Shown piece by piece: positions 14,205 through 58,470 of a stretch of 64,000 nucleotides of DNA. Within the stretch, counting starts at the first letter, position 1. Every line of letters begins with the position of its first letter. The notes below the pieces were generated by a model. The model was not told the origin of the DNA. It saw only the letters and a program-made list of their open reading frames with translations, and made no database searches. The translations under genes were made by a program, and so were the position numbers. The DNA is from Alphaproteobacteria bacterium (GTDB lineage Bacteria > Pseudomonadota > Alphaproteobacteria > JABAAW01): positions 1,612,315-1,676,314 of the forward strand of contig OZ244186.1 in NCBI GenBank assembly GCA_965216625.1, given 5' to 3'.

Positions 14205-14420
14205 GAGTGCGCTAGCGCACGACAAGTCGTGCGCTCCGCTGACGCGGGGTCTTTTGCGGGGGAACTTCGTCCCCCCACACCCCCCATGCGCAAAACTCAC
14301 TTCGCCTTACGGCTCGCTCGTCTTGCGTTTTTCCTTCGTTATAAAAAGCCCGTCACGCGTTCGCACGCGCGCGCATGTTTACGCCCGTAAAGTCTACAAC
14401 GCGCGTCCATGATGTTTGCT
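14205..14420 (+). repeat. Hairpin-rich modular intergenic repeat, copy A
   Basis: Core CCGCTGACGCGGGGTCTTTTGCG at 14236-14258 shared with copies at ~19.8, 23.9, 57.0 and 58.3 kb; downstream part nearly matches the reverse complement of 19740-19833. Confidence 0.85.
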
Positions 14421-14993
14421 ACGCGCGCGCGCATACTCCGCAAGCACGCGCGGATAAAGCCGATGCTCCAACACAAGCACCCGCTCCGCCAAACTCTCAG
14501 GCGAATCGCTTTCGCTAATATCTAACCGCTCCTGCCCCAAAACCTCGCCCCCATCCAACTCCTCCGTCACAACATGAACGCTACACCCATGCTCCCGATA
14601 CCCCCCCTCAAGCGCACGGCGATGCGTCGAAAGCCCACGCAACCTCGGCAATAACGAAGGATGAATGTTGAGAATACAACCCCGCCAACGCGCCACAAAC
14701 CCCCCTGAAAGCAATCGCATAAACCCCGCCAAGCAGACGATCTCTACATCACGCTCCCCCAACATACGATCAACCACCTGCTCGAATTGCTCTTTCCCCA
14801 GCGCGTCGTAGTCGACAACCTCGCTGGGAATGCCTGCCTTTTTGGCGATCTCGCAACCCCCCGCCACACAGTCAGCAATAACCAACACGATAGAGCAAGG
14901 AAACTTCGGCTTTTGAGCCGCCCGTATCAAAGCCCCAAGGTTCGATCCCCGCCCCGAAATCAACACGGCAACGCGACACTTCAAGGCTGACAA
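14394..14993 (-). CDS. purN: Phosphoribosylglycinamide formyltransferase
   Basis: LISGRGSNL, CLAGFMRLL, ILNIHPSLLP, GCSVHVV. Confidence 0.96.
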   Translation of the reverse strand: MSALKCRVAVLISGRGSNLGALIRAAQKPKFPCSIVLVIADCVAGGCEIAKKAGIPSEVVDYDALGKEQFEQVVDRMLGERDVEIVCLAGFMRLLSGGFVARWRGCILNIHPSLLPRLRGLSTHRRALEGGYREHGCSVHVVTEELDGGEVLGQERLDISESDSPESLAERVLVLEHRLYPRVLAEYARARSKHHGRAL

Positions 14994-15004
14994 GTCGTTG
15001 GTCG

Positions 15005-16102
15005 TTATCCGTCCTGAAACTCAACGAAAGGCTTCGCGTTGGAATCGGCATGAGAATTATCATCGCCCATCTTCTCGACAACCCCAACCTCGACGACCTT
15101 CTCTCCCGCTGCCTTCGCCGCCGTAAAAAAATCATCGCGCTTGGCAGGAGGAACAGCGACAACAAGCCCCGCTCCGCAGTTGAAGACACGACGCATCTCA
15201 CTCTCGGCAATGTTGCCCGCCTGCTGCAAGCGCACAAAAACTTCAGGACGCACCACCGCCCGCATATCAACCACCGCTCGCTGCCCGCCTTGCAAGATAC
15301 GCGGCAGATTGTCCTCAATCCCCCCGCCCGTGATGTGCGCGATCCCCGAAACCAACCCTTTTTCGATCCACGGCGCACAAACCTTGTTGTAGATACGCGT
15401 AGGCTTTAACAGCATTTGGATAAAATCTTTGTCCTTTTTAAGCGCGGGATTTTTATCCAACACAGCACGCACGAGCGAAAAACCGTTGGCATGCACACCG
15501 CTGGAGGGTACGACAAAAAGCCTATCGCCTGCCTCTACATGCGCTTTGCGAAAGGAAGCATCGCGCTCTACCGCGCCGAGCACAAATCCTGCGAGGTCGA
15601 AATCTCCTTTAGGGTAGAAGCCCGGCATCTGCGCGGTCTCGCCGCCGACGAGCGCGCACCCCGCCTGCGCGCAACCCTCGGCGATGGATTCCATCACCTG
15701 TTTTTGCAAGGTTGGCGAGATAGAGGCGTAGGCGAAATAATCGAGAAACGCCAATGGCTGCGCACCATCTTTGAGCAGATCGTTTGCGCACATGGCGACC
15801 AAGTCGATGCCTACCCCTTCGCAAGCCTGCGCCTCGATAGCGAGGAGCAACTTCGTGCCGACCCCGTCGCACGCCATGACGAGGATCGGATCGCGGAAAC
15901 CCGCCGCCTTCGGATCAAAGGATGCGCCAAAGCCTCCAAGAGACGACACAGCGCGATCAGAAAACGACGCACCCTCGCTCGTCCTTTGAGCCAGCGGCGC
16001 GAGCGTCTCCTCGACAAAGCGATTGCCTTCCTCGACATCGACCCCCCCATCGTCACGATAATTTAAGCCAGAGCCTAAAGAAGGCTCGTATCTGTCTTCC
16101 AT
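15005..16102 (-). CDS. purM: AIR synthetase
   Basis: DGVGTKL, GIDLVAMCAND, GGETAQMPG, HITGGG. Confidence 0.96.
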   Translation of the reverse strand: MEDRYEPSLGSGLNYRDDGGVDVEEGNRFVEETLAPLAQRTSEGASFSDRAVSSLGGFGASFDPKAAGFRDPILVMACDGVGTKLLLAIEAQACEGVGIDLVAMCANDLLKDGAQPLAFLDYFAYASISPTLQKQVMESIAEGCAQAGCALVGGETAQMPGFYPKGDFDLAGFVLGAVERDASFRKAHVEAGDRLFVVPSSGVHANGFSLVRAVLDKNPALKKDKDFIQMLLKPTRIYNKVCAPWIEKGLVSGIAHITGGGIEDNLPRILQGGQRAVVDMRAVVRPEVFVRLQQAGNIAESEMRRVFNCGAGLVVAVPPAKRDDFFTAAKAAGEKVVEVGVVEKMGDDNSHADSNAKPFVEFQDG

Positions 16103-16334
16103 AGATAAAAACAAAAGTTGTTTTTATGTTCTCCAACCTATTTTTAGCACTAAACGCTGTCCTTTAGCCACCACCCAAAATTATCGTCTTGTCTTCAAAA
16201 ATTTAGAGTGTTTGATTCGTTTTTGGTTGGTTTTTGCCTCAAATTTGCATTTTAGCTGCTTGAAGTTATCCCCATCTTTTTCAAGAGCCTATTGTATTAT
16301 AGTAGGCTCGCCCTCTCAAATGGGAGATTTCTTC

Positions 16335-17606
16335 ATGCCGACAAATTTTCTTCGCTCCCTTCTTTTCTTCCTCTCGCTGTGGCTGCTGACGACAAACGCG
16401 CAAGCACAGCAGAACAGGCTGGAAGAAGCGTTGCTGGTCTCCCTGCCCGTCAGCGTCGAGGCTACCATCGAGCAGGAGGGTAAGAAGAAAGTAGCAAGCC
16501 TCGCGCTACGCGTAACCTTCGCAGAGGTTTTGCACCGATTCGTCGTCGACGAGGAACGCGCGCGCGCGCTCGCACAAAGCTTGTCGGAAAAACACATCCG
16601 CGCGCTCAGCGAAACGCTGATCGTTGAAACCACAAGCTTCGATGGCAAAAATTTCACAGGACAAGCCAGCGTCCGTTTCGTCTTGAAGAAACTTTTCGCG
16701 CGCCTGCATAAAGAAGGGCTACAAGTCTCCTTTACCATAGCTCCATCGTTCGTGCTGATTCCCATCTTCGTGCGTGCAGAGAAAACAGAATTGTGGCCGC
16801 CGCAAAATCCATGGCTGAGCGCGTGGAAGACAGAAAGCACCGACAAGAGCTGGCTCGTTCCGATCACGCCGATCGAGGCGAACGCCGCCGAAAGGCTTGC
16901 CGTGCTCGATGCCGTCAAGGACTTGCAATCGATGCAGGCAGCCCTGCTCGCTAAGCAGTATCGCGCGCAAGGGATCGCCCTGCTCAAAGCGACGCTCCAC
17001 ACCGATGCGGAAGATCCCTCTGTCCTCACGCTGAGCGTGAGCGGGCAGCTGAACCAAGCGGGTTTTCCTTCCGAGCTGCCTCCTTTTTCCGTCGTGTCGA
17101 ACAGCGCGAACGAAAGCCAAAACAAGCAAGAGGGCGAGCAAGAAGACGAACAGGAGGGCGGGCAAGAAGACGAACAAGAGGGCGGGCAAGAAGACGAACA
17201 AGAGGGCGGGCAAGAAGACGAGCCGGAGGGCGAGCAAGATGGTGGAGACTCGCTCCTCCTTGCCGCCCTGCTCTCGCAAGCGCGCACCGAGACGCTGTAT
17301 CGTCTGAATCGCCTTTGGAAAGAGCAGGCTGCGCACGAGGCAAAACGCCACAGGCTGAGCGTCATCGCCGAGCTGCGCTCGCGCGAAGAGTGGACGGCTG
17401 TCGAGGGAGTGCTTTCCGCAACCCCTGAACTCGTCGAATACGGCTTACGCAGCCTCTCCGCGCGACAGGCGCATGTTGTCGCCTATCACTACGGCTCGCC
17501 AAGATTGTTGAGAGCAGCCTTGACTCGACGAGGGCTCATCGTCGGCAGCACGAAGGATGGCGACCTTACTGTAAAACTTGCCGCAAAAATTTCTGTTGTG
17601 CCATGA
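16335..17606 (+). CDS. DUF2066-like exported protein with acidic repeat insert
   Basis: Signal peptide, NPWLSAW motif, divergent from purM and upstream of AI-2E gene as is usual in alphaproteobacteria. Confidence 0.65.
   Translation: MPTNFLRSLLFFLSLWLLTTNAQAQQNRLEEALLVSLPVSVEATIEQEGKKKVASLALRVTFAEVLHRFVVDEERARALAQSLSEKHIRALSETLIVETTSFDGKNFTGQASVRFVLKKLFARLHKEGLQVSFTIAPSFVLIPIFVRAEKTELWPPQNPWLSAWKTESTDKSWLVPITPIEANAAERLAVLDAVKDLQSMQAALLAKQYRAQGIALLKATLHTDAEDPSVLTLSVSGQLNQAGFPSELPPFSVVSNSANESQNKQEGEQEDEQEGGQEDEQEGGQEDEQEGGQEDEPEGEQDGGDSLLLAALLSQARTETLYRLNRLWKEQAAHEAKRHRLSVIAELRSREEWTAVEGVLSATPELVEYGLRSLSARQAHVVAYHYGSPRLLRAALTRRGLIVGSTKDGDLTVKLAAKISVVP
17127..17240 (+). repeat. In-frame 24-bp tandem repeat (QEDEQEGG)
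   Basis: CAAGAAGACGAACAAGAGGGCGGG units, about 4-5 imperfect copies. Confidence 0.9.
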
Positions 17607-18766: not shown

Positions 18767-18823
18767 GCTGGATAACGCTTGATTGGCGCGACGTTTGATT
18801 GACGCAGATTTGAAGGATTGGCG

Positions 18824-19603
18824 ATGGCACAAGGTGCGCAACACAATCTTCCTCTACCTGATACGCGGGGGGAGGGATTTGAGGAAAAACATTTCTTGCG
18901 GTTGCAAGCCAACAGCGAGGCGTTGGATGCATTGCTCGCTTGGCAAACAAGCAGCCACGCTCTCAGTCAACCTTGCAGCCACGCTCTCAGTCAACCTTGC
19001 AGTCAACCTTGCGAACAATCTTCGAGCGTGCCGAGTGCTCCACGCATCGAGGCTTTGTGTGGTGCTGCGAAGTGTGGCAAGTCGCACTTGGGGGAGATAT
19101 GGTGTTCGCGCAATGGTGCGCGTGCGGTCACGCCGTCTTTGTTGGTGCATGGGTTAGGGGAGGTATCTGATGGGGCTTTGTGGCTTGATTTTTCGGCGAG
19201 CGAGGATCCTGGCAAGGTAGGCATGACGCAGGATTTGGAGCGTGCGCTTTACGCGCTTTATAATGGGGTTATGCATAGTGTTGGGGGTTCTTTGTTGATC
19301 ACGGCGCGGAGCGAGCCTAGTCGATGGAGATTTTTGTTAGCGGATTTACGCTCGCGGATGCGTGCGGTTGTTGTGAGGCGCATTGGGGATCCGAGTGATG
19401 GGGACAGCGCGCGATTATTGGAGAGGATTTTCCGCACGCGTCAATTGGAGGTTGATCCGCGTGTTTATGCTTATGTGCATCGTCGTATTGAGCGGAGTTT
19501 TCGGGCGCATCATGCGATTGCGGAGGAGTTGGATACTTTGAGTTTGTTGCATAAGCGAAAGATCACTTTGCCTTTTGTGGCGCGTTATTTCGAGCGCGCG
19601 TAG
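18824..19603 (+). CDS. hda: DnaA regulatory inactivator HdaA
   Basis: N-terminal QHNLPL clamp-binding-like motif, Walker A GAAKCGKSHL, DLRSRM, RRIERSF; position after purM/AI-2E. Confidence 0.85.
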   Translation: MAQGAQHNLPLPDTRGEGFEEKHFLRLQANSEALDALLAWQTSSHALSQPCSHALSQPCSQPCEQSSSVPSAPRIEALCGAAKCGKSHLGEIWCSRNGARAVTPSLLVHGLGEVSDGALWLDFSASEDPGKVGMTQDLERALYALYNGVMHSVGGSLLITARSEPSRWRFLLADLRSRMRAVVVRRIGDPSDGDSARLLERIFRTRQLEVDPRVYAYVHRRIERSFRAHHAIAEELDTLSLLHKRKITLPFVARYFERA

Positions 19604-19912
19604 CACTGCGTGCTTTTTTGCGGGGGGTGTAGGGGTCGCACATGACGGATTTTTTGTATTGACGGGCGCAAAACATCGCGTGCGCTGGCGCACGCGGGAG
19701 GATGTATGGTTGTAAATGACGGATTTTTTGTATTGACGGAGACGCAAGACGAGCGAGCCGTAGGCGTAGCGAGTTTTGCGCATGGGGGGAGGGGGGGGAC
19801 GAAGTCCCCCCGCAAAAGACCCCGCGTCAGCGGGGCGCGTAAGCGCCTTCTACGCATCGCGCGCGTAGCGCGAGATGCGTAGCCTCTTATTCCCAAGCGC
19901 GCGCCCGTTCCC
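19604..19912 (-). repeat. Hairpin-rich modular intergenic repeat, copy B (reverse)
   Basis: CGCAAAAGACCCCGCGTCAGCGG at 19811-19833; GTAGCCTCTTATT near 19880-19892; internal duplicate ATGACGGATTTTTTGTATTGACGG. Confidence 0.85.
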
Positions 19913-19914
19913 CT

Positions 19915-22900
19915 CTAACTACAGCCCGTCGTCTGTCCACAAGTCATACAAGTATAACAAGAACCACTGCGAACAAGCGTGATATGACCACAAAAATCAC
20001 AAGAATCACCAATCCCCTCATCCATCGTCTTTGTCTGTGTCTGTGTCTGTGAAACCAAAACCCCCGCCTCGTTCTCGCCCGCAAGCGCAGTGTGACGCAC
20101 GCCGCTCCCGCCGTTGCCGTTGCCGTTGCCGTTTCCATTACCATTACGTTTCACACTGAGCTCGCGTCGCACATAGCCACTGCTGGTGAGTTTGGTTAAT
20201 CTATCGATAGCCGCCAACGCCTCCTCGCTCAAACGCCCCTCGTCCTTGCCCTTGCCAAGCCCCGTGAAGTCAGCAGCATCAGGCAACTCAATATGTCCCA
20301 AATCATCGCGTCCCAAGTAGCTGATCGCAAGCTCGCGGAAGATGTAATCAAGAATAGAAGTGGCGTTGCGAATCGAAGCGTTCTCACGCACAATGCCGCT
20401 CGGCTCAAAGCGCGTGAAGGTGAAAGCATCGGCAAACTCCCTGAGCGGCACGCCGTATTGCAATCCGATGGAAACAGCAATGGCAAAGTTGTTCATCATA
20501 GAACGAAAAGCCGCCCCCTCCTTATGCATGTCGATGAAGATTTCTCCCAACGAACCATCCTCATACTCGCCCGTATGCAGATAAACCTTATGCCCCCCAA
20601 CAACAGCTTTTTGCGTGTAACTCTTGCGACGCGCGGGCAAGCGGTCGCGCTCGCCTCGTATGCTCGGCTGTGCTTGTGTCGGGATTTTCTTGTCCTCTAC
20701 CGCAAGCGTCTGCTTGTACTGCTCGAAGAGATCGTGCGCGATTTTCTTGGCAATCTCAAGAATGTGCGCCTGCGTCTCGGCTATGGGCGACTCCTCCTTT
20801 TCGCCGCGCGAGGTTGTCAGAGGCTGCGAGAGCTTCGAGCCATCGCGGTAAAGCGCATTGGCTTTAAGTCCCAACTTCCACGATTCCTCAAAGGCTTGTT
20901 GGCAATCTGCAATCGTAGCGTGATGCGGCATGTTGACAGTCTTCGATATAGCACCCGAGATGAAAGGCTGAGCGGCTGCCATCATGCGAATGTGGCTTTT
21001 GCAAGAAAGGCTGCGTTTTCCCTCAATCCCGCAGGAGGTTGCGCAGTCGAAAACGGCGAGGTGTTTCGCTTGCAACAAAGGCACTCCTTCGACGGTGAGC
21101 CTTCCGCAAATCTCCGCGTTGGCATCCGCAATCTCTTGCGCAGAAAACCCAAGCGCCGCCAGCACATCGCCGTTGCGTACAACAAGACGCTGAAACTCCT
21201 TCGCGCCCAGCGTGTGCGGCGTGAAGGCGTTGCGAATGTGGAAGGCACTTTTCAAGGCACGCTCGATGGCTTGGACGGATTTGCTCGCTATTCCTTCGCG
21301 CTCCAAGCGTGCGCGCGACAAGCCCTTGTCGTTCGACGAGAGCTTGCCGCTGCCCACGACGGCTTGCTCGATAGCGAGCGCATTTTCCTCGATGTATCCC
21401 AGCGATCGCAAGGCTGCGGAGAGGGTGGGATTGACAATCTTGAGCGTACCCCCACCGGCGAGTTTCTTCATCTTGACGAGCGCGAAATCGGGCTCAATAC
21501 CCATCGTTGCGCAATCCATGACGATGCCGATCGTGCCTGTCGGGGCGATCACGCTGACTTGGGCGTTGCGAAAGCCGTGCTGCTCGCCCTTCTCGATGAC
21601 ACGATCCCAAACCTCTCGCGCTGCCGTAGCGAGAGCCTTGTCGCGGCACTCTGAACTTTCAAACGCTACGGGAGGACGGCTCAACCCTTCGTAGTCTCCA
21701 TCCTTGCCTTGTGCGGCGCGGCGATGGTTGCGCATGACGCGCAGCATAGGTTCTTTGTTTTCTTGGAAGCGTGCGAAAGCTCCTAGTTCGGCAGCCATCT
21801 CTGCGCTTGTCTCGTAGGCTGTTCCGCTCATCAGCGAGCTTATGGCGGCGCAAAAGCTTCTGCCCTCGCTGCTGTCGTAGGGGACGCCGAAACTCATGAG
21901 CGTGCCGCCCAAGTTGGCGAAGCCAAGTCCGAGCGTGCGAAAGTCGTAGGAGTTGCGTGCGATGGCTTGCGAGGGAAACTGCGCCATAGCGACCGATATT
22001 TCCAAGGCACAAGTCCACAGACGCGTTGCGTGCGTGAAGGCTTCGGTGAGAAATCCTTCGTCGCTGCAGAATTGCAAGAGGTTGAAGGAGGCGAGGTTGC
22101 AAGCCGTGTCGTCGAGAAACATGTATTCCGAGCAAGGGTTCGATGCGTTGATGCGTCCCGAGTTCGGGCAGGTGTGCCACTCGTTGATGGTGGTATCGAA
22201 CTGGATGCCGGGGTCGGCGCTTGCCCATGCGGCGTCGGCGATTTTTGTCCACAGCGTTCGGGCGGAGAGGGTTTTGTAGGTGTTTCCATCGGTGCGTCGG
22301 GTGAGATGCCATGGCTCGTCGCGCTCGACGGCTTGGAGGAATCGCTCGCTGACGCGCACGCTGTTGTTGGCGTTTTGTCCCGATACGGTGAGGTAGGCGT
22401 TGCCCTGCCAGTCTGTATCGAAGGTTGAGAAGGGAATGCGTCGTTCGCCTTGCCGTGCTTTCAGCAAGGCTCTGACGAGAATCGATTCAGGCATACGCTC
22501 GCTACGCGCTGCTCTCAGGGCGGAGGCGAGCAGGGGGTTGGTATGCTCATCGTGGCGTTGTTTTTTCGGGATGTCGTCGCTGTGCGCGGCGTCCAAGATA
22601 TTGTCGAGGTGTTGTTGGCAGCGTTGTGCGCCGACGACCAACGAGGCGACTTTTTGTTCTTCAAGCACTTTCCAATCGATGAATTCCTCGACATCGGGGT
22701 GATCGATATCGACGACGACCATTTTAGCGGCGCGGCGGGTTGTGCCGCCTGACTTGATGGCACCGGCGGCTCGGTCGCCGATCTTGAGAAACGACATGAG
22801 TCCCGACGAGTATCCTCCGCCTGACAGGGGTTCGTTTTCGCCGCGCAGTTGTGAGAAGTTGCTACCTGTTCCTGAGCCGTATTTGAACAGACGGGCTTCG

Positions 22901-23559
22901 CGCACCCATAGATCCATGATACCGCTTTCGCCGACTAGGTCGTCCTTGACCGATTGGATGAAGCAGGCGTGGGGTTGCGGGCGTTCGTATGCCGAGTTCG
23001 CGAGCGCGAGGGTGTCGGTTTTTTCGTCTACATACCAGTGTCCTTGCGGAGGCCCGTCGATTCCGTAGGCCCAATACAATCCTGTATTGAACCATTGGGG
23101 AGAGTTAGGCGAGGCGATTTGTTTAGCGAGCATGTATCGCATTTCGTCAAAGAAGGTTTGTGCGTCTTCTTCGCTATCGAAGTATCCGTTTTTTGCTCCC
23201 CAATATGTCCATGTGCCTGTGATTCGGTCGAAGACTTGTTTGGCGCTCACTTCGCCTGTTGTTTGTTTTTCTTTTGGGAGGGAAGCGAGTTTTTGTGTAT
23301 TTGGGATGGATCGTTCGATGAAGGTTGGGATACCTTTTTCTTGGAGGGGTTGGAGGTATTTGGGGATACCTCGGCGGCGGAAGTATTTTTGCGCGAGGAT
23401 ATCGGTTGCGGTTGAGGACCAGGACTTGGGGACTTCCACATTCTTTTGTTGGAAGACGATATTTCCTGAGGCGTCTTGGATGGAGGCGGAGACGCGGTGG
23501 AAGGGGATGGAGGCGTAGGGGCTGATGCCGGCGCGGGTGTAGTGGCGGGGAATCTTCAA
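19915..23559 (-). CDS. nrdJ: Vitamin B12-dependent (class II) ribonucleotide reductase
   Basis: [34 protein letters not shown]-terminal CxxC pairs; likely TTG start at 23559 (ORF open to 23694). Confidence 0.96.
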
Positions 23560-23665
23560 GGGAGTTTCTTCTGTAGGAGTTAAGGGTGAACAGCTAAAAG
23601 GCAGTATAGCCTCTGATGGACGATGGCGAACTGTCCGCCTAGAGACTCCTTGAAGAGCTGAAATT

Positions 23666-23674
23666 TTATCCACA
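23666..23674 (+). promoter_or_regulatory. Perfect DnaA box upstream of nrdJ
   Basis: TTATCCACA about 110 bp upstream of the likely nrdJ start. Confidence 0.5.
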
Positions 23675-23709
23675 GATTTTTTTTGTCTACACACACTGAA
23701 TAGACACGG

Positions 23710-24215
23710 AACGGCGCGCGCGTACGCGCTTTATCGCAACCTAGCAAGCTGTTTTTGTGACGAAAGTCTGTGGCGCATTGCTTCGCAATGCGCTTTTGAA
23801 TAAGAGGCTACGCACTTCGCTTCGCTCGTGCGTAGATAAAGCGCGCTTGCGTGCGCGAGGGGATAAATTCCCCCCGCTGACGCGGGGTCTTTTGCGAGGG
23901 ATTACTCCCTCGCGCTCCCCGCGCGCTACGCGCGCGATGTTTTGCATCCGTAAAGGCTAACCGCTATCCCCCGCACTCCCCGCGTCATAGCGCGTTGCTT
24001 GCAACGCGCGTCCATGATGTTGCCAGCGCGCGATGTTTTGCATCCGTCAAGACTAACCGCTATCCCCCACACCCCCCGCGCACGCCATAGCGCGTTGCTT
24101 GCAACGCGCGTCCATGATGTTGCCAGCGCGCATGTTTTGCATCCGTAAAGACTAACCGCTATCCGTCATACTCCCCCGCGTGCAGCGCACGCGATGTTTT
24201 GCATCCGTAAAAAGC
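23710..24215 (+). repeat. Hairpin-rich modular intergenic repeat, copy C
   Basis: TTTTGAATAAGAGGCTAC...GTAG hairpin, core at 23874-23896, four ATGTTTTGCATCCGT units near 23937, 24033, 24132 and 24194. Confidence 0.9.
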
Positions 24216-24251
24216 GCGTCATCTGCCAAAAATCCTGCTACACTCCCCCCC

Positions 24252-24596
24252 ATGCCCACCGCCATAACCCTCCTCCAAACCCTCCTCCACGGCCGCCTAG
24301 TCGGACGCGACTCCCTCAATAACCGATACTACAAAGATAAAAATCCCAAAAAAACCCGCCGATGGGTCGTCTATAACAAAAAACCCGAAGACGCATCCCT
24401 CATTACCCCCGCCTGGCACGCCTGGATGCACCACACTACCAATATCCCCCCCTCCCAATCCCATACCCCGCGACTCCAACACGCCTGGCAAAAACCCCAT
24501 CAACCCAACCCCACCGGAACAGCCAAATCTCGAAGCTCAACAAAAAAACAACCCCCCAAAAAACCCTACGAAGCCTGGACTCCTCCCACCCCCTAA
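24252..24596 (+). CDS. NADH:ubiquinone oxidoreductase subunit NDUFA12 family
   Basis: LVGRDSLNNRYY, RRWVVY, PAWHAWMHH, WQKPHQPNPTGT, YEAWTP. Confidence 0.9.
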   Translation: MPTAITLLQTLLHGRLVGRDSLNNRYYKDKNPKKTRRWVVYNKKPEDASLITPAWHAWMHHTTNIPPSQSHTPRLQHAWQKPHQPNPTGTAKSRSSTKKQPPKKPYEAWTPPTP

Positions 24597-24633
24597 GAGC
24601 AAATCCCAAATCCCGAATCACAAATCCTCCGCC

Positions 24634-25176
24634 TTGACAACCCCAACACCCCCGCAACTCTCCACCGCGACTCTGCTCGCACGGCGACATCGCATCCGAC
24701 ACCGACTCTACGGAACCATCACCCTCCTCCTCTTCTCCCTCCTGCTCGCGCACTCCTACCGCGCCGATAGAACCCATGCCGCCAGCCAATCCATTACCCT
24801 CTTCGCCGACTTCCTCAAAGTACAAGGATTGCGCGCAGGAAACTCCGTCACACTCGGAGGCGTCGCCATCGGAAAAGTAACGAAAGTCTCGCTGCAAAAA
24901 CCCTCGATGAACGTACGCGTGCAAATCGCCATAGGCAACACCCTCGCCATCCCCGCCGACAGCGCCGCCATCATCCGAGCCCAAAACCTGTCAGGAAGCA
25001 TGAGCCTCGTCGTCGAGCCAGGCGGCGAAGAAACATCCCTGCAAGAAGGCGACTTCTTCACCTTCACACGCGAACCCATCGAACTACCCCAACTGATCAC
25101 AACTATCGTCGAACGCGCAGAACGCAATACCGCGCGTCCCGACGACACGCAACAAAACAACAGGAGCCACCCATGA
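24634..25176 (+). CDS. mlaD: MlaD/MCE family protein
   Basis: GLRAGNSVTLGGVAIGKV, IPADSAAII, VEPGG. Confidence 0.8.
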   Translation: MTTPTPPQLSTATLLARRHRIRHRLYGTITLLLFSLLLAHSYRADRTHAASQSITLFADFLKVQGLRAGNSVTLGGVAIGKVTKVSLQKPSMNVRVQIAIGNTLAIPADSAAIIRAQNLSGSMSLVVEPGGEETSLQEGDFFTFTREPIELPQLITTIVERAERNTARPDDTQQNNRSHP

Positions 25177-25619
25177 AACACAGCTGGTTCGAACTGATCG
25201 CAGGATTTGCCGCGCTCGCCTGCGCCGTCGTCTTCTTCCTATACGCAACAGCAGAAGAAACGGAAGAAGGCGAACAAACCTTTACCGCACACTTTCCCTC
25301 CAGCCGCGGCGTCGTGCGCGGTAGCGAAGTGCGCCTGAACGGCGTGGTGATAGGAAAGGTCACGCGCGTCCATATCGACCAAGACATCTTCGATGCCGTG
25401 ATAACGCTATCTATACAGGATTCGCTGCGCCTGCCCTTCGATAGCATGCTTGTAGCACAAAGCCCCCTGCTGCTAGGCGAAGCCTACCTCAATGTGATCC
25501 CTGGCAAAGAAACAACCGCCCTGCAAAGCGGCGATCGCATCGTCTCGACACGAAGCGAACCCACCTTCGAGGAAATTCTAGAACGCGCCATCTTCGTTGT
25601 CGGAGAACAAGCGCGATGA
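25173..25619 (+). CDS. mlaD: MlaD/MCE family protein (second copy)
   Basis: GSEVRLNGVVIGKV, LLGEAYLNVIPG. Confidence 0.85.
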   Translation: MKHSWFELIAGFAALACAVVFFLYATAEETEEGEQTFTAHFPSSRGVVRGSEVRLNGVVIGKVTRVHIDQDIFDAVITLSIQDSLRLPFDSMLVAQSPLLLGEAYLNVIPGKETTALQSGDRIVSTRSEPTFEEILERAIFVVGEQAR

Positions 25620-38724: not shown

Positions 38725-38770
38725 CGCTCGTCTATGCTAGGATGGCGTGAGGCTGAGAGGAAGGGCTTGC

Positions 38771-38857
38771 GGAGAGGTGCCGGAGCGGTCGAACGGGACG
38801 GTCTCGAAAACCGTTGTGCGCGCAAGCGCACCGAGGGTTCGAATCCCTCCCTCTCCG
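38771..38857 (+). tRNA. tRNA-Ser (CGA); CCA not encoded
   Basis: GGAGAGG/CCTCTCC acceptor stem, ACGGT-CTCGAAA-ACCGT anticodon arm, long variable arm, GGTTCGAATCC. Confidence 0.95.
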
Positions 38858-38905
38858 TATTTTGCTCGAAGTATTTCCTTTGTCGCCGCAACCCTAGCAC
38901 AAGCA

Positions 38906-39688
38906 TCAAAGAGGCAAACGTTTGAAAATTTTCTCTGGGATGTTGCGGATGATCGCCATGATGGCGACCCACAGCCACGGCACATAGAGCTGCTCGCGCT
39001 TGGAGTCGATGGCGCGCAGGATAACACGAGCGACATGCTCAGGACTGCTCCACAAAGCACCCTTGCGGAACGAGGCGGTCATCTTCGTAGACACAAAGCC
39101 GGGCTTGAGCGTCTGAATGCACAGAGGCGAGCCTGCGCGCGCCAAACGATGGCGCAATCCCTGCAAAAAGAGCGCGACCGCGCCTTTCCCCGACCCATAG
39201 ACATAGTTCGACGCGCGACCGCGATCGCCCGCGACCGAACCAAAAACAGAGATCACACCCCCCTTCTTCTCCATGCGTGCGCTCGCGGCATGAGCCAGCG
39301 AGACAACGCTGAGAAAGTTCGTCTCCCAGGCGATGCGCGCCTGTTCAAAGTTTTTCTCGGCTGTTTTTTGGTTCGGCAAAACTCCTTGCGCAAGCACGAC
39401 AACCCGCAACCCTCCCAAGGCTTTGTGCGCGTGGGCGAGCAACTTGTCGTGCGAGGCGAAGTTGCGCGCCTCGAAGCCTTCGGTCGCGACAAAACTGGCA
39501 CCGCGCAGCGTCAAGTCCTTCGCAAGCCTTGCAAGCGCCTTCTTGTCGCGCGAAAAAAGGCAGAGGCGCGCGCCGCGCACAGCCCACAGGCGCGCCATCG
39601 CGCGTGCTATGTCGGCGTTCGCTCCGAAGATTGCTATGTGATCGGAGGTTTGGTGGTCGGGGTTGTGTTCAGGGTTTTTTGCTGTCAT
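38906..39688 (-). CDS. SDR oxidoreductase, DprE2-like
   Basis: IFGANADIA, SVAGDRGRASNYVYGSGK, KPGFVSTKMT; downstream of DprE1-like gene. Confidence 0.8.
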   Translation of the reverse strand: MTAKNPEHNPDHQTSDHIAIFGANADIARAMARLWAVRGARLCLFSRDKKALARLAKDLTLRGASFVATEGFEARNFASHDKLLAHAHKALGGLRVVVLAQGVLPNQKTAEKNFEQARIAWETNFLSVVSLAHAASARMEKKGGVISVFGSVAGDRGRASNYVYGSGKGAVALFLQGLRHRLARAGSPLCIQTLKPGFVSTKMTASFRKGALWSSPEHVARVILRAIDSKREQLYVPWLWVAIMAIIRNIPEKIFKRLPL

Positions 39689-39755
39689 CGTTTTGCTCCT
39701 TTTATGCTTGAGGGGAAATTTATCCCTGAGTTGTCTCGTTTGGATTGTCTTTCTG

Positions 39756-41072
39756 TCAAAGCCCGAGTCGCTTTGATTGCCGCGAAGCAAAAAGGGTGTC
39801 GGCTTCGAACTTGCGCCGTACAGCGCAAAACTCTTTCCATCGAGGATAGCCTTTGCGAAAGTTCTTTTTCGAGAGACGTGCGTCTTTCGTCAGATAGACG
39901 CGTCCTCCGACAGCATGCACGAGCGCGTCCAAATTTTCCAGCAGCGCGAAGACAAGCGCGTTGTTTTGAAAGTCGAGCGCAAGCGTGTAGCCCTCCTGAG
40001 GAAAGGACAGAGGAGACAGAGCGATCCCGCACCCCATCGTTTTCAGCACGGCGAGAAAGGACCCTTGTTGCGAAGCGACGACGCGTTGCAAAATTTCTTC
40101 TAGCACGTCGCGCCCGTCTTTTTTTGGCACGACGCACTGGTATTGCAAAAATCCGCGCTTGCCGTAGAGACGGTTCCAGTGTCGAATGCCATCGAGCGGA
40201 TAGAAGAACTTGTCGTATGCAACGATTCGCTCGACGGGCTTTTTGGCGCGACACCCGTAGTACACGGCGTTGAAGGCGCGCACGGAGAGGGGGTTGAGCA
40301 GGAAGGAAGGAGCGTTGCAGGGAACAGAGACGCGTCCTTTTTCTTCGATGCGCCATCCCGCGCGCTCGGCGTGTTCGGCGAGGAAGAGTACACCGCGCCC
40401 CAGATTTTTGCCTCGTGCAAGACAATCGAGCCACGCAACCGAGTAAGTTGTCTCGGCATAGCGTTCCAACAAATCGACGAGTTCCTGAAGATTGCGCGCG
40501 CGCTGGCTTGTCTCCAGCATGCATGCGCTCGGCACGCGCTTCATGCGTAAGGTTAGCTCGATCACAACCCCGACAAGTCCCATCCCGCCGCAGACGGCGT
40601 GAAACAGCTCGGCATTCTTGCGCTTTGAGCAGGAGACGATCGTGCCATCCGCGAGCATCACGCGCATGTCTTGTATGTGATGAGCAAAGCTTCCTTCTTT
40701 GTGATGGTTTTTGCCGTGCACATCGCTGGCGACAGCCCCTCCCAGCGTCACATGCCTTGTGCCAGGCGAGACAGGCACCGCCCACCCTACAGGCAGGAAG
40801 ACGCGCAATAGATCGTCGAGCGCAACGCCCGCCAGACATCGAAGGTATCCTGTGCGCGCGTCGAAGGCGCTGAGCGTGTCGAAGGCGCGCATGTCGAGGC
40901 TGACGGGCGCGAGCGCACAATCGCCGTAGCCGCGTCCGCAACCCCGTGCGATCAAACGCTCGCCGCGTGCGCGCGCAGAGCGAAAAACCTTTCGCAAGGC
41001 TTCCTCCGATGCAGGCGAGACGACCTGTGCCTCCAGCGAAGGATATCGCCCCCAGCCTGTTATGCTCGTCAT
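39756..41072 (-). CDS. FAD-linked oxidoreductase, DprE1-like
   Basis: GWGR, RGCGRGYGD, PGTRHVTLGGAVASDVHGKNHH, FFYPLD, WNRLYG, FLQYQ, GRVYLTKD. Confidence 0.85.
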   Translation of the reverse strand: MTSITGWGRYPSLEAQVVSPASEEALRKVFRSARARGERLIARGCGRGYGDCALAPVSLDMRAFDTLSAFDARTGYLRCLAGVALDDLLRVFLPVGWAVPVSPGTRHVTLGGAVASDVHGKNHHKEGSFAHHIQDMRVMLADGTIVSCSKRKNAELFHAVCGGMGLVGVVIELTLRMKRVPSACMLETSQRARNLQELVDLLERYAETTYSVAWLDCLARGKNLGRGVLFLAEHAERAGWRIEEKGRVSVPCNAPSFLLNPLSVRAFNAVYYGCRAKKPVERIVAYDKFFYPLDGIRHWNRLYGKRGFLQYQCVVPKKDGRDVLEEILQRVVASQQGSFLAVLKTMGCGIALSPLSFPQEGYTLALDFQNNALVFALLENLDALVHAVGGRVYLTKDARLSKKNFRKGYPRWKEFCAVRRKFEADTLFASRQSKRLGL

Positions 41073-41219
41073 AACTTCCTCACCCCTCTTAAACAATCTT
41101 GCTCGAACAATCTTGTTTCCCAATTTTTGCGCTCGTGCGTTGTCGCGCAAGGATTTTGCGCTTACTATAGGCAAAAGACAGAGGCAAAGGAGCTGTTCGT
41201 GCAGGAGGGAGGAAACGCG

Positions 41220-49738: not shown

Positions 49739-49793
49739 CCCCGTTTTCCCGCCAAGGCATCAACGAGGAAGCAAAGACCAAGAAGCAAAGATA

Positions 49794-50555: not shown

Positions 50556-50568
50556 AAACTCGCGTCGT

Positions 50569-52882: not shown

Positions 52883-52889
52883 AGGCACG

Positions 52890-53363: not shown

Positions 53364-53443
53364 TTTGCTACACTATTTTTGTTGCGAAGTTTCGACTTAA
53401 GGTTTTACTTTAGCTTACGCCCTCTAACTTTCACTCCTTGTTT

Positions 53444-54133: not shown

Positions 54134-54169
54134 TCCCTGCTCGTTGATCGCCACACGCGACTTTTTTGT

Positions 54170-54598: not shown

Positions 54599-54641
54599 GC
54601 TAACCGCGTCTATACCCTTCGCCTTGTCGTTTTCTCTTGCC

Positions 54642-55487
54642 ATGAAAGGCTTCCTGCTACGCCCCTTCGACGAGCGTAGCATGTCGGAAACGCTCGCTTT
54701 CTCCGCGCTCGTGCACGCCATGCTGTTCTTTTCTGGCACGCTCCTCGCATGGCTTTTGCCGCGTTATATCGAGCCGTTCCCCTCGACGCGCGTCGAGATC
54801 ATCTCGGAAGCAGAACTGCAACAACGACTCAAAACCTACCGCACCGAAGCGAAAACAACCCCTCGTGAAACTCCACAGCAAGAACAGCCCACGGCTGAAC
54901 AGCCCGCGACTGAACAACCCACGACCGAACAACAAAAAGCAGAGCAACCCACAAATGAGCAGCCCGCAGGACAGAGCGCGGCTGTTAAAAAACCTCCTAA
55001 GGAGCGCGTTGCCGAAAAAACGACAGAAGAAAAGCCTCAAGAAACGATCGATAGTCTGCTCACGGCTTTGGAGGAGACTTCGGACGAGGAAGCGACGTTG
55101 GACGAATCGTTGGACGCGGCGCTGGCAGAATCGGAACCCGAGGCTTCTTTTCTGACCTCCGAGTCCGTTCTGACGCCACGCGAGCTTGCCACCTTCCGCC
55201 GTCACATCACGCAATGCTGGAGCCCGCCGGTCGGCGCGCCTGCGTTGGAGAATCTGGTTGTTGATCTGCTGCTGACCATCGACGGAAATGCCTATGTCGT
55301 CGATGCGCTGGTGATGGATCGAGCGCGTATGACGAGCGATCCTTTTTTTCGTAGCGCTGCAGAGGCCGCCCTGCGCACGCTTTCGGACGCAGCCTGCTCG
55401 CCGTTGCGCCTGCCTTTGGAAAAGCATGCCTTGTGGAAAAAAACGATTCTGCGCTTTGACCCGCGCAGTCTGTTCGGAGGAAACTAG
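54642..55487 (+). CDS. tolA: TolA-like protein
   Basis: TM SALVH motif, low-complexity linker, QCWSPP...RFDP C-terminal domain; between tolR and tolB. Confidence 0.8.
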   Translation: MKGFLLRPFDERSMSETLAFSALVHAMLFFSGTLLAWLLPRYIEPFPSTRVEIISEAELQQRLKTYRTEAKTTPRETPQQEQPTAEQPATEQPTTEQQKAEQPTNEQPAGQSAAVKKPPKERVAEKTTEEKPQETIDSLLTALEETSDEEATLDESLDAALAESEPEASFLTSESVLTPRELATFRRHITQCWSPPVGAPALENLVVDLLLTIDGNAYVVDALVMDRARMTSDPFFRSAAEAALRTLSDAACSPLRLPLEKHALWKKTILRFDPRSLFGGN

Positions 55488-55494
55488 AGGAGAC

Positions 55495-56832
55495 ATGGCG
55501 CGTCTTACCTTCCTGTTGTTCGCAAGCTTGCTGTGGTTTGGTGTTATCTCCAAGCCTGTCTCGGCGCAGTTGCGGATCGACATTCAGGACGGAATTTTCC
55601 GTCCGACAAAGCTTGCGATCACCGACATCGTGCGCAAGCGTGCGGGGCGCAAGACGGCGAGTATTGTGCGTAGCGTTTTGGAATCGGATCTGACGCGCGC
55701 GGGCTTGATCGAGATTGTCGAGCGCGATGCGCTCATACAAACGGCCCTTGCTTTGAACGAGACGCCTCCTTTCGCTGTTTTTCGCATTGCGGGTGCGGAT
55801 GCGCTCGCCACGATTTCGCTCAACAAGAAGGGCAGAGTTCTGACGGCGACCTTGCAGATTTGGGATGTCAACCTAGAGCGTCCGCTTGCACGCGAGACGC
55901 TGAGCGCGCGTTCTGAGCGTGTGCTTGCGCATAAAATCGCGGATGCCATCTACAGCCGTCTGACCGGTGAGAAAGGATATTTCAACAGTCGTATTTTGTA
56001 TGTCTCGGAGATCGTGCGCAAGAAGCGGCGTTGGAAGAGGTTGGAGATCATGGATGCGGACGGTGCGAACGTACGCTATCTGACGCGCGGAAGGCGCACT
56101 TTGGTGTTGAACCCGCGTTTTTCGCCTGACGGCAGCAAGGCGATTTATACGGCACTCACGCGCGAGAGGAGTTCGATTCGTCTGATCGATCTGACGCGCA
56201 AGAATAGAGAGCAGATTTTACCTTTGGGAGAGGGACTTGTTTATGCGGCGCGTTTTTCGCCTGACAATCGCGGCATTGTTTATGCGCAGTCTTTGTCGGG
56301 CAACAGCGAGATTTTCACTTACGATCTTGGGACGCAGCGTCGTCGTCGTCTGACGGTGCATCCTTCGATTGACACTTCTCCTAGTTTTTCTCCGGACGGG
56401 GGTTATGTTGCTTTTGTTTCGGATCGCAGTGGCTCGCCGCAGATTTATGTGATGACGCGGCGCGGCGCGCATGTTCAGCGAGTGAGTTTTGACAAGGGAT
56501 CGTTTTCGACGCCGATATGGTCTCCGCGCGGCGATCGGATTGCTTTCACGCGGCAGCTTTACGGCAGGTTTGGGGTAGGTGTGATGCGCACGGATGGCAG
56601 TGATTTGCGCATTCTTGCTGAGGGATTTCGTGTGGAGGGGCCGAGTTGGTCTCCGAACGGCAGGGTATTAGTTTTCTTTAACAAGCAGCGGACGCCTAGG
56701 GGGGCGCGTGCGGGGAGGTCTCGATTGATGACGGTGGATGTGACGGGGCGGTTTTTGCGGGAGTTGCCGACGAGGCATAACGCTTATGACCCTAGTTGGT
56801 CGCACGCACGCGAGGAGACGGAGGGGGAGTAA
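55495..56832 (+). CDS. tolB: TolB
   Basis: AHKIADAIYSRLTGEKGYF, repeated PxFSPDG propeller motifs. Confidence 0.93.
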   Translation: MARLTFLLFASLLWFGVISKPVSAQLRIDIQDGIFRPTKLAITDIVRKRAGRKTASIVRSVLESDLTRAGLIEIVERDALIQTALALNETPPFAVFRIAGADALATISLNKKGRVLTATLQIWDVNLERPLARETLSARSERVLAHKIADAIYSRLTGEKGYFNSRILYVSEIVRKKRRWKRLEIMDADGANVRYLTRGRRTLVLNPRFSPDGSKAIYTALTRERSSIRLIDLTRKNREQILPLGEGLVYAARFSPDNRGIVYAQSLSGNSEIFTYDLGTQRRRRLTVHPSIDTSPSFSPDGGYVAFVSDRSGSPQIYVMTRRGAHVQRVSFDKGSFSTPIWSPRGDRIAFTRQLYGRFGVGVMRTDGSDLRILAEGFRVEGPSWSPNGRVLVFFNKQRTPRGARAGRSRLMTVDVTGRFLRELPTRHNAYDPSWSHAREETEGE

Positions 56833-56849
56833 AGGACGGACGTTTTGCA

Positions 56850-57225
56850 TTGACGGATGCAAAACATCGCGTGCGCTTGTGTGTGTCTGTTGCGTTCGCG
56901 CTTGTGCTTTTTAATGGCACGCGCTTACGCAACAGACTTGCTTTGTATGATGACGGGCGCAAAACATCGCGTGCGTAGCACGCGGGGAGCGCGAGGGAGT
57001 AATCCCTCGCAAAAGACCCCGCGTCAGCGGGGCGCGATAGCGCCTTCTACACACTTTGCGCGAAGCGCAAAGTGTGTAGCCTCTTATTCCAAAGCGCGAG
57101 GCTTTGCCTCGCGCAAGCATGACTCGTAACATGGTAGAGCGTCTTTAACTTTGCCTAGAAGATAGAGCCGAAAAGAACGCACGAAGTGCGTTTTTCTACG
57201 CGCGTAGCGCGTTTCTGCGAGCGAA
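56850..57225 (-). repeat. Hairpin-rich modular intergenic repeat, copy D (reverse)
   Basis: CGCAAAAGACCCCGCGTCAGCGG at 57008-57030, GTAGCCTCTTATTCCAAAGCGCGAGGC, two TGACGG(AT/GC)GCAAAACATCGCG units. Confidence 0.9.
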
Positions 57226-57237
57226 AACTGCCCTAGC

Positions 57238-57645
57238 CTACCCTACGCCCTGCTCCAACAACAAAGTTGCAAGCCCAATCATTGCCGCCATGAGTGTCGC
57301 AATAACAGAAAATCCTATAACCATCATCTGTCGCAAACCCCTCATCTGCTCCTGCATCGCCTGATTCTCCGCCCTCAACGCCTGATTCTCCGCCTTCGTC
57401 TCTGTCCTCAACGCCTGAAACTGTACATCCATCTTCTCTGCTAACCCTCGAATCTCCGCCTTCAGCTCTATCTTTACCGCCTGAGTCTCCGCCTTCGTCG
57501 CAACCCCCCGCATAATCTCGCGCAAAACATCGCACAGCGCACGAGCTTGCCCCTCGTCCCATCCCCCTTCTCGCAATCGGTCGACAACCCGTTGCGTGTC
57601 AAAACTCACCGCTCCATTCGACACTCTTTCTGTTCCTTCCAACAT
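57238..57645 (-). CDS. CCDC90/DUF1640-like coiled-coil membrane protein
   Basis: FDTQRVVDRLREGGWDEGQARAL, VATKAE, heptad repeats, C-terminal TM segment. Confidence 0.75.
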   Translation of the reverse strand: MLEGTERVSNGAVSFDTQRVVDRLREGGWDEGQARALCDVLREIMRGVATKAETQAVKIELKAEIRGLAEKMDVQFQALRTETKAENQALRAENQAMQEQMRGLRQMMVIGFSVIATLMAAMIGLATLLLEQGVG

Positions 57646-57729
57646 GACGACCCTCTCTCTTTTCCAAAGCCCCCAAAACAAATCTCCTGATTCGAACGAT
57701 ACCTACTCCCCGTCCGAAAGTCAAGCCCG

Positions 57730-58470
57730 CACAGGCGCGCTGCGTGCGTTCTTCTTGTTGTTAGGGTGAGCGAAAACGCAATCGCCGTGCCATTGTTACG
57801 AGTCAGCTCGGGGATAAATTCCCCTTGCGCGAGGCAAGCCTCGCGCTTTTCAATAAGAGGCGCACTGCGTGCGGTTCTTTTTGTCGCTAGGGAGAAGAAA
57901 ACAAAATCGCCGTATCGTGTTAAAAGTCAGCTTGCGCGAGGCAAGCCTCGCGCTTTGGAATAAGAGGCTACGCGCTACGCGCGTAGATAAAGCCCGTATC
58001 TGCCTTTGCGATGCGCGCCTCTTAAAAAGCGCAGGCGAGCAAAGGCAGACAAACACAAACTCTCTACCGTGTTGCGAGTCAGCTTGGGGATGAACTCCCC
58101 TTGCGCACGGCAAGCCTCGCGCTTTTGAATAAGAGGCGCGCTTCGTGCGGTTCTTCTTGTCGTTAGGGCGAGGAGAACTCGAATCGCTGTGCCATGTTGC
58201 TAGTCAGTATTGCGCGAGGCAAGCCTCGCGCTTTTGAATAAGAGGCTACGCGCTTCGCGCGTAGATAAAGCGCACTGCGTGCGCTCCGCTGACGCGGAGT
58301 CTTTTGCGAGGGATTACTCCCTCGCGCTCCCGCGCACGCTTCGCGTGCGCATGTTTTGCATCCGTAAAGACTATCCACCCCCCGCGTCATAGCGTACGGT
58401 TTGCCGTGCGCGTCCATGATGTTGCCAGCACGCGATGTTTTGCATCCGTAAAAACTACCCGCGCCCGTCA
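57730..58470 (+). repeat. Hairpin-rich modular intergenic repeat, copy E (expanded)
   Basis: Four near-identical 36-bp units TTGCGCGAGGCAAGCCTCGCGCTTTTGAATAAGAGG at 57825, 57932, 58101 and 58210; core at 58286-58308; two ATGTTTTGCATCCGTAAA units. Confidence 0.9.

Follow-up and report, generated by a model that had tools for sequence, protein, structure and literature searches.

It has long been debated how repeats like the repetitive extragenic palindromes (REPs) persist without a transposase and what their role is. The question is raised by five arrays of hairpins, copies A to E, in a 64,000-nucleotide stretch of an alphaproteobacterial genome (assembly GCA_965216625.1, contig OZ244186.1, positions 1,612,315 to 1,676,314; the window). 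An earlier note on this DNA had taken the arrays for a non-autonomous element that is selected to fold as single-stranded DNA (ssDNA) and is mobilised or cut by an enzyme encoded elsewhere. The first part of this proposal agrees with the loop rule, the stem covariation and the flank skew reported below, while mobilisation by an HUH enzyme does not find support. Because the hairpin loops follow a DNA-type rule on one strand and the flanks carry a strand-specific scar, we suggest that the arrays probably act as DNA and are not a classic jumping element. One small genome here unites a DNA-fold clue, none of the mobilising enzymes searched for and an array-centred, transcription-independent scar.

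A modular repeat family of one genus

The host genome (G000) is a single contig of 1,902,689 bp with 55% G+C, and its NDUFA12-like, Hda-like and AddA (alpha-type model) hits are in line with an alphaproteobacterial host. Positions given without a prefix are those of the whole window, and "sense" is our own label for one strand of the repeat unit. The core of the unit, CCGCTGACGCGGGGTCTTTTGCG, is found in the window without mismatch at 14236 (+), 19811 (-), 23874 (+) and 57008 (-) and with one mismatch at 58286 (+), i.e. five times compared to zero expected from 100 shuffles. The 3' module has nine matches with up to three mismatches (1.58 expected), one in copy B, four in C and two each in D and E. 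For the 5' module motif GAATAAGAGG, ten matches with up to one mismatch were found (2.48 expected), seven of them inside the arrays (one each in B, C and D, four in E and none in A) and three outside (7359, 17172 and 17196). Matches to all three sequences exceed chance and the five copies are real. The placement of the modules around the cores also bears out the proposed scheme of one or more 5' modules, a single core and one or more 3' modules, as well as the observation that copy A is without the first module.

The family extends over the whole genome. With up to three mismatches the core is present 139 times in G000, almost always as an exact copy, and the 194 non-coding blocks with at least one of the three modules make up 82,211 bp, or 4.32% of the genome, at 187 loci and with a median length of 400 bp. 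Counted with up to two mismatches, the core is present 136 times in G000, 55 times in the sister species G004, and eight and three times in two further genomes (G002 and G003), that is, in four of the seven genomes of the genus. At the same threshold it is absent from the three remaining, fragmentary genomes of the genus and from 34 genomes of other genera, and a covariance model of the unit gave a single weak match (26 bits) across 120 other genera of the class. In the literature searched, neither the core string nor those of the modules turned up. Searched against Rfam at gathering thresholds, the whole window has matches to two tRNAs only; with E-values up to 1-5, the best match on the arrays is Atu_C8, on the antisense strand and with 20.7 bits against a cut-off of 50, and a match to a known Rfam family was therefore not found. 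In short, the repeat family is modular, non-coding and restricted to the genus.

On the sense strand, the full unit is a polar chain of six elements, running from 5' modules through the one core to 3' modules. The chain begins with GCGCGAGGC-AAA-GCCTCGCGC, followed by TTTTGAATAAGAGG, and continues with a hypervariable CTAC...GTAG hairpin and a short GC hairpin. The fourth element is the core hairpin, CCCCGC-TGAC-GCGGGG, followed by TCTTTTGCG, and the last two are hairpins exemplified by CGAGGGA-TTAC-TCCCTCG and by CGCGTGC-TAC-GCACGCG, the latter with ATGTTTTGC behind it. At least three alternative continuations exist 3' of the core. The CTAC...GTAG hairpin, which can be read directly to differ in length and sequence among copies B, C, D and E as had been claimed, has 62 distinct sequences among its 219 copies.

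Pairing is kept through this variation. An alignment of 23 units of the type seen most often has 486 cells, of which 98.8% are paired, and changes on both sides are present at four pairs, amounting to 20 cells. None of 500 shuffles reached the observed values for the paired fraction, for cells with a double change or for the covariation score; pairs changed on both sides were at least as numerous in 34 of the 500, and "further pair types" in all 500. The alternative stem alleles, each of them perfectly complementary, were counted position by position, since MAFFT, applied globally to 164 distinct units, put alternative hairpin alleles out of register. The stem covariation put forward earlier is thus borne out, although the example chosen for it is a weak one. 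The core stem does read CCCCGC/GCGGGG in copy C and CTCCGC/GCGGAG in copy E; as a compensatory change, however, this is not compelling, with the pair being C-G in 16, U-G in six and U-A in one of the 23 aligned units and with one genomic core copy in which GCGGAG faces CCCCGC, i.e. a mismatch.

A second pairing is available to the core of some units. At 56975-57052 and in other type I units, the GCGGGG of the core can pair either with the upstream CCCCGC, giving the core hairpin, or with a CCCCGCG about 30 nt downstream, in which case the next hairpin is enclosed. The two structures are mutually exclusive, and folding programs alternate between them in copy D. A likeness of the core stem to that of the E. 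coli type I-E repeat of clustered regularly interspaced short palindromic repeats (CRISPR) was considered and dismissed, as no regular repeat-spacer spacing is visible in the arrays inspected.

A loop rule on one strand and a composition scar in the flanks

The ends of the loops are G...A on one strand, and they are constant while stems, loop size and middle base vary. Perfect stems of at least six pairs close 719 triloops in the repeat blocks, of which 539 are of the GNA/TNC and 123 of the AAA/TTT type, and the GNA/TNC type is not enriched outside the repeats. Near cores, 262 of 338 triloops have GNA on the antisense strand and 11 on the sense strand, with 65 others. For the 225 tetraloops near cores, the sense strand reads TNNC in 162 and GNNA in none, and the remaining 63 are mostly palindromic CAAG/CTTG. 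The GAA, GTA, GCA, GTAA and GTCA loops are on the strand on which the earlier note had placed them, and the strand bias of the GNA loops holds over all genomic copies, across many stem variants. Distinct alleles with T...C loop ends on the sense strand are 14 of 22 at hairpin position H3, two of two at H4, nine of 21 at H5 and nine of 20 at H6, and only one allele at these four positions has G...A ends on that strand. Because the T...C ends are spread across distinct alleles, the loop rule is not merely a matter of copy number. In the CTAC...GTAG hairpin the loops are TAC (78), TTC (23), TGC (9) and TCC (5), compared to two GTA, and with flips this rare it is not a flip-flop hairpin terminus. 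Deamination of a palindromic centre was rejected as a source of the T...C ends, since a single C-to-T change at CNG/GNC gives TNG/CNA or GNT/ANC and not TNC.

The rule is that of the DNA mini-hairpins GCGNAGC and GCGNNAGC described by Hirao and colleagues, with which the arrays also share the C-G closing pair. In the available text of PMC13037366, GNA is the sole triloop among 64 to form an extra-stable DNA fold, which has a melting temperature (Tm) of 70-76 C and withstands 3' exonuclease, while the RNA counterpart r(GCGAAAGC) has a Tm of only 39 C. Both mini-hairpin sequences are present in the arrays and lean to the same strand: near cores, GCGNAGC has 421 antisense and 51 sense occurrences, and GCGNNAGC has 328 and 116, respectively. 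In the non-coding repeat blocks GCGNAGC is present 970 times, compared to 50-172 for three controls of the same composition, and the antisense core contains GCGTCAGC, which fits GCGNNAGC. Some array hairpins close with A-T (A-GTAA-T). The mini-hairpins known from the available text of PMC13037366 are single priming sites of phages and plasmids or N4 promoter sites, whereas there are hundreds of chromosomal copies here, arranged in mosaics.

The strongest correlate of the arrays is a skew in the composition of their flanks. Around the 139 cores, the GC skew of the sense strand, computed for non-repeat DNA, is positive 5' of the core (about +0.27) and negative 3' of it (about -0.44); the AT skew has the opposite sign, and both reach zero by 2-3 kb. 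In other words, C and A are scarce on either side of the array in the strand that runs into it with its 3' end. The sign flips within 25 nt of the core, and the skew is stronger on the 3' side of the element (0.36 vs 0.24). With the flanking gene in antisense orientation the flank skew is -0.46 and with the gene in sense orientation -0.39, so the direction of the gene is irrelevant, as is that of the replication fork: the inward-strand skew is 0.34 where the flank is replicated ahead of the array and 0.28 where it is replicated later.

All five copies in the window have this skew. To the left of copy A (13500..14200), the + strand is G/T-rich with a GC skew of +0.24 to +0.35, and the corresponding left flanks reach +0.37 at B (18900-19700), +0.36 at C (23100-23700) and +0.30 at D (56500-56900). 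To the right of A (14300..15500), the + strand is C/A-rich with a skew of -0.23 to -0.38; here, the corresponding values are -0.30 at B (19900-20300), down to -0.53 at C (24100-25300), down to -0.50 at D (57100-57900) and down to -0.49 at E (58300-59300). The scar extends into essential neighbouring genes.

Comparison between species points to an old and maintained process. In 13 orthologous gaps without arrays there is no skew (mean -0.02). At five sites that are filled in G000 only, the same skew is present in G004 (0.39 vs 0.36), and this old flank skew suggests that the arrays were recently lost in G004 rather than newly inserted in G000. At one flank, four species have the skew in common at only about 80% identity, from which we argue that the process is maintained. 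The sign of the skew is consistent with a break or gap at the array from which DNA is resected in the 5'-3' direction, the 3' tails that survive being damaged, and the composition of the flanks suggests that the DNA at the arrays is often single-stranded. To our knowledge, and no dedicated literature search was made, a lasting compositional scar in genes beside bacterial repeats has not been described.

How the arrays may arise, persist and turn over

The sister species G004, which is about 90% identical to G000 and collinear with it, was compared over 800 kb. Arrays occupy the same intergenic sites in the two species and differ in the modules that they contain. At the loci of copies B and C, the arrays have the opposite orientation in G004, with the ribonucleotide reductase (RNR) gene unmoved. 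Comparisons of filled and empty sites show blocks that are gained or lost beside existing modules, and of one head-to-head doublet G004 retains the centre only. Copy A has changed in a similar way: its orthologue in G004 retains the first module, and G000 lost this module together with two hairpins by a deletion between two GCGCT repeats. Of five public runs, none was listed as RNA. Logan contigs from four runs were short and broken in the repeats, with joints from other copies, and were uninformative on strain variation.

The reading that we favour, giving it about an even chance of being right, is that of a mosaic of palindromes that resides in the genome and acts at the level of DNA. It would mark DNA that is repeatedly single-stranded or broken, and slippage and recombination would account for its turnover. 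The mosaic occupies about 190 fixed intergenic sites and would be of the same general kind as the bacterial interspersed mosaic elements (BIMEs) of enterobacteria and the neisserial intergenic mosaic elements (NIMEs). In this model, the arrays would extrude as single-stranded hairpins or cruciforms, with the GNA/GNNA tips nucleating very stable folds on one strand. Gaps or double-strand breaks would tend to recur at these sites, with 5'-3' resection after them, and the long-lived 3' tails would gather base damage, giving rise to the mirror skew. Modules would be shuffled, deleted, inverted and homogenised through repair, slippage and inter-array recombination, processes that would also allow accessory genes to swap in at the centres of arrays. 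Any termination of transcription by the arrays would then be a side effect. G000 encodes an AddA-type enzyme (alpha-type model) and two genes of the uracil-DNA glycosylase (UDG) family.

There is a precedent for part of this in the long palindromes of E. coli, which are hairpin or cruciform break sites that are cut by SbcCD and repaired by RecBCD/RecA, with resection on a kilobase scale to both sides. Fragile long palindromes and SbcCD are also mentioned in the available text of PMC3733652. The arrays differ from these palindromes in that they are conserved residents and are not eliminated, and in the lack of an sbcD homologue among the genes found in G000.

A more far-reaching version of the favoured reading, which we consider rather doubtful, is that the arrays are built-in fragile or recombination sites that work via ssDNA. 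Chains of GNA mini-hairpins, which resist exonuclease and single-stranded DNA-binding protein (SSB), would fold on exposed strands at a defined core and keep 3' tails of 1-2 kb long-lived on both sides. These tails would bring about a strand-polar hypermutation of neighbouring genes by loss of C and A and drive the shuffling of modules; genes for defence and host interaction would be captured or exchanged at array centres, all without a dedicated transposase.

If the link between the arrays and the flank scar holds, palindromic repeats would locally reshape the mutation spectrum and codon usage of the genes that flank them and seed hot spots of accessory genes, and the ssDNA-hairpin hypothesis would become directly testable.

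Several observations weigh against a DNA-level mosaic at break-prone sites. When 58 changes at one flank were polarised with two outgroups, there was no clear strand excess (G>A at 11 of 235 sites, C>T at 16 of 454, T>C at three of 175 and A>G at four of 254). The missing sbcD homologue means that the textbook hairpin nuclease is lacking, and the gene map behind the context counts given below is crude, as it comes from our own rough gene caller. Folding is not decisive either. The folding Z-scores of the arrays are -4.6 to -9.7, and the advantage of the GNA strand under nearest-neighbour models is only 0.8-1.6 kcal/mol with DNA parameters and 0.3-2.4 kcal/mol with RNA parameters, so that a comparison of the two, as proposed in the earlier note, separates neither the molecules nor the strands. 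The first hairpin has AAA on the sense strand (50 vs 6 TTT), and the T.G pair of the core stem, present in six of 23 rows, is a wobble on the sense strand only; both make it less clear that one strand alone folds. Internal mismatches lean only weakly to the antisense strand (15 vs 3 copies, or 5 vs 2 distinct sequences). Finally, terminator-like sites, i.e. a hairpin with a T-run, number 15 in 56700-58600 compared to 2.4 expected and are found on both strands, which keeps an RNA role in play.

Among the alternatives, such a role in RNA fares best, although we judge it improbable. The arrays would be stacked, roughly bidirectional terminators, stabilisers of mRNA 3' ends or antisense small RNAs, roles that have been proposed for many REPs. 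Gene context is in line with this idea: 118 of the 139 cores face at least one gene 3' end, and 63 lie between convergent genes, an arrangement that accounts for 13% of all intergenic regions. The terminator-like sites point in the same direction, as do GUAA, which is a GNRA loop, the core T.G pair as a sense-strand wobble and the very weak Rfam match to Atu_C8, an alphaproteobacterial small RNA, on the antisense strand. However, a match of 20.7 bits is far from its cut-off of 50. Moreover, 21 cores lie between divergent genes, and orientation in tandem gene contexts is random, with 27 cores co-oriented and 28 opposed and thus no transcription bias. We know of no stable RNA loops of the sense-strand types UNC, UUAC and UGAC, and the GNA triloops as well as GUCA, which is not a GNRA loop, fit the DNA rule better. 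The RNA mini-hairpin is also far less stable than the DNA form in the available text of PMC13037366. Lastly, a function as RNA leaves unexplained a flank skew that is independent of gene direction.

It is quite unlikely that the arrays are instead the boundaries of exchangeable cassettes. Such boundaries could be XerC/XerD sites, as in the dif modules of plasmids or the folded ssDNA of CTX phage, or they could serve homologous exchange after DNA uptake, as in neisserial minimal mobile elements. This explanation draws on the spacing of the cores: neighbours with facing 5' sides ('-+') are separated by less than 5.1 kb in 27 of 41 gaps, seven of which are below 300 bp, compared to 10 of 41 gaps below 5.1 kb and none below 2 kb for the opposite arrangement (Fisher p = 0.0003). 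The enclosed genes are often accessory and low in GC (0.31-0.44), including four Sel1-repeat proteins, a methylase with T5orf172, GmrSD and HNH. In addition, the only tyrosine recombinases found in G000 are XerC-like and XerD-like. They score 88 and 105 bits on the integron-integrase model, the cut-off of which is 265, and the XerC/XerD models fit them best; with no integron integrase found, and with arrays that bracket genes as inverted and not as direct repeats, integron attC sites are not what we see. What tells against cassettes is that the genes bracketed in the window are an RNR gene of normal GC and a conserved small gene, that the arrays beside the RNR gene are inverted in G004 while the gene stays put, and that the same pattern could equally result from passive capture of foreign DNA at break-prone sites.

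Neisserial mosaics of dRS3 and RS arrays, and minimal mobile elements, combine several repeat types in larger intergenic gaps with variable accessory genes and are thought to be recombinogenic rather than transposing. The arrays resemble them in their mosaic build beside accessory genes. They differ in having no sequence relationship to them, in their polarity around one core and in tips that follow the DNA mini-hairpin rule; furthermore, we know of no uptake-sequence system in this lineage.

The reading of the earlier note, i.e. a non-autonomous element that folds as ssDNA and is moved by an HUH enzyme encoded elsewhere, such as a REP-associated tyrosine transposase (RAYT) or TnpA (Y1), a Rep protein or a relaxase, is very unlikely. 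It would liken the arrays to REPs and their doublets (REPINs) or to the ends of IS200/IS605 elements, and the GNA/GNNA loops on one strand, the CTAC...GTAG hairpins, which recall the GTAG of REPs, and the head-to-head doublets in the seven '-+' gaps below 300 bp speak for such a likeness. Also, TnpAREP reads ssDNA hairpins, and in some systems loop bases, in the available text of PMC8266576. However, the enzymes were not found. Y1_Tnp (PF01797) has no match in the seven genomes of the genus in a search that was positive in six of 14 control genomes and in three more distant relatives. Nor does G000 have a match to RVT_1, Relaxase (PF03432), DEDD_Tnp_IS110, rve, DDE_Tnp_1 or Cas12f1-like_TNB (PF07282), in a search that did not take in the Rep families and TrwC. 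A Y2_Tnp search gave no match in any control genome and, therefore, says nothing on G000. The search for RAYT/TnpA (Y1), relaxase and reverse transcriptase genes that had been recommended thus came back empty for G000.

The behaviour of the arrays also differs from that of such elements. The sense strand of the core is on the leading strand 64 times and on the lagging strand 75 times (p = 0.40), i.e. there is no replication bias, and an IS200/IS605-type element is indicated neither by a lagging-strand bias nor by a PF01797 or PF07282 match. In the comparison with G004, no insertion into a naive site was seen among the five sites filled only in G000, and filled and empty sites revealed no consistent target site duplication or terminal inverted repeat, one 158-bp unit being flanked by CAA and CAA. 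In REPs, a conserved unpaired tetranucleotide, mostly GTAG, stands directly 5' of the palindrome (available text of PMC8266576), whereas the GTAG of the arrays is paired within a stem. A search for GT[AG]G followed by a stem of 8-9 bp gave 42 hits, all distinct, compared to 91 for a control tag, and the REPtron tag was thus not found.

Nevertheless, much of the design is shared with BIMEs, including REPs and REPINs. Both are high-copy intergenic palindromes of about 20-50 nt, here with 139 cores at 187 loci and seven head-to-head pairs below 300 bp, that are combined with other short motifs under a fixed grammar, are often inverted doublets, are enriched at gene 3' ends and keep their pairing through stem variation. 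The arrays are unlike BIMEs in that seven genomes of the genus are without a RAYT and GTAG is paired in a stem and is not an unpaired 5' tag, and also in being chains of five to six different hairpins around one unique core, with G...A loop ends on one strand and an extreme mirror skew in the flanks. Similarly, the CGTC-tagged REPs, a super-family that takes in neisserial dRS3 and some of the Rickettsia palindromic elements (RPEs; Di Nocera et al. 2013, PMC3733652), have mostly alphaproteobacterial hosts, no dedicated transposase and a predominance of head-to-head dimers. As described in the available text of that paper, their anatomy consists of an unpaired CGTC, TGTC or CCTC tag, a CCA tail and a hairpin with a loop of 4-5 and a stem of 8-9 bp, the first two pairs of which are A/T. 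This anatomy is absent from G000, with 25 hits, all distinct, compared to 29 for a control tag.

Finally, it is highly improbable that the arrays are single-strand initiation signals that load primase or the restart primosome on exposed ssDNA: GCGNAGC/GCGNNAGC mini-hairpins naturally occur as just such signals, in phages G4, St-1 and alpha3 at the origins of the complementary strand and in RSF1010 at ssiA, besides the N4 hairpin promoters (available text of PMC13037366), the antisense core has the fitting GCGTCAGC and the flanks have an ssDNA-type footprint, but there is no replication orientation bias and nothing beyond the loop motif links the arrays to priming.

The window copies and other repeats

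The genes at the five window copies were verified by Pfam. An RsmD-like gene and purN converge on copy A (14205..14432, +). In it, the hairpin GCGCACGA-CAAG-TCGTGCGC is fused straight to the core (14236-14258), and a type II 3' part follows. Copies B and C flank the gene for a class II (B12-dependent) RNR (19915..23694, -), with their 5' modules facing inward. Copy B (19609..19893, -), on which an hda-like gene and the RNR gene converge, consists of a 3' module (19662-19676), the core (19811-19833), a CTAC...GTAG hairpin and GAATAAGAGG (19883-19892). Copy C (23753..24249, +) is in the divergent intergenic region between the RNR gene and an NDUFA12-like gene and has one 5' module (23798), the core (23874-23896) and four 3' modules (23937, 24033, 24132 and 24194).

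The same arrangement is found for copies D (-) and E (+), the 5' modules of which face inward towards a gene for a small CCDC90-like coiled-coil protein (57238..57681, -). Copy D (56849..57221) lies between the ends of tolB and of this gene and contains two 3' modules (56853 and 56953), the core (57008-57030), a CTAC...GTAG hairpin of 33 nt and a 5' module (57080). In copy E (57700..58460), four 5' modules (57851, 57958, 58127 and 58236) precede a core with a G-to-A change (58286-58308) and two 3' modules (58351 and 58435).

Further repeats were noted in the course of the analysis. A different small element is present at G000:C1:1785145-1785530 and 1699491-1699770, with empty sites at G004:C2:695713-695721 and 600245-600256. 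Its terminal inverted repeats start with GGAAATTACA, and it lies between direct repeats of GAGTTAAT, which is present as a single copy in G004. It is, thus, a classical miniature inverted-repeat transposable element (MITE) with a target duplication of 8 bp, yet no DDE transposase gene was found in G000. At G000:C1:288180-288720, three tandem units of 258-260 bp have a diverged core, CTGCTGACGCGGGGTCTTTAGCG, and form a sub-family that is arranged head-to-tail and not head-to-head.

Repeated 14-mers make up 10.4% of G000, and a part of these is due to RTX-repeat protein genes and not to the arrays. Large multi-copy blocks that were suspected to be transposases turned out to be such genes. They encode very long RTX (HemolysinCabind) repeat proteins, among others at G000:C1:59402-63632, 390478-397189, 454940-461428, 841040-845697, 935743-939284 and 1006155-1015311; the family supplies much of the repeated 14-mer content, and several of its genes adjoin hairpin arrays. 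The 14-mer census also flagged 17154-17215 in the window, where GAACAAGAGG is present twice, 24 bp apart, as a tandem repeat within the gene at 16212-17606, and its likeness to the 5' module motif may be chance. Lastly, the region 34020-41084 of the window aligns to several overlapping places in G004 (542077-552918) with 70-77% identity and an offset of about 1.7 kb, a pattern that suggests a tandem family of paralogous genes with a copy number or content that differs between the two species.

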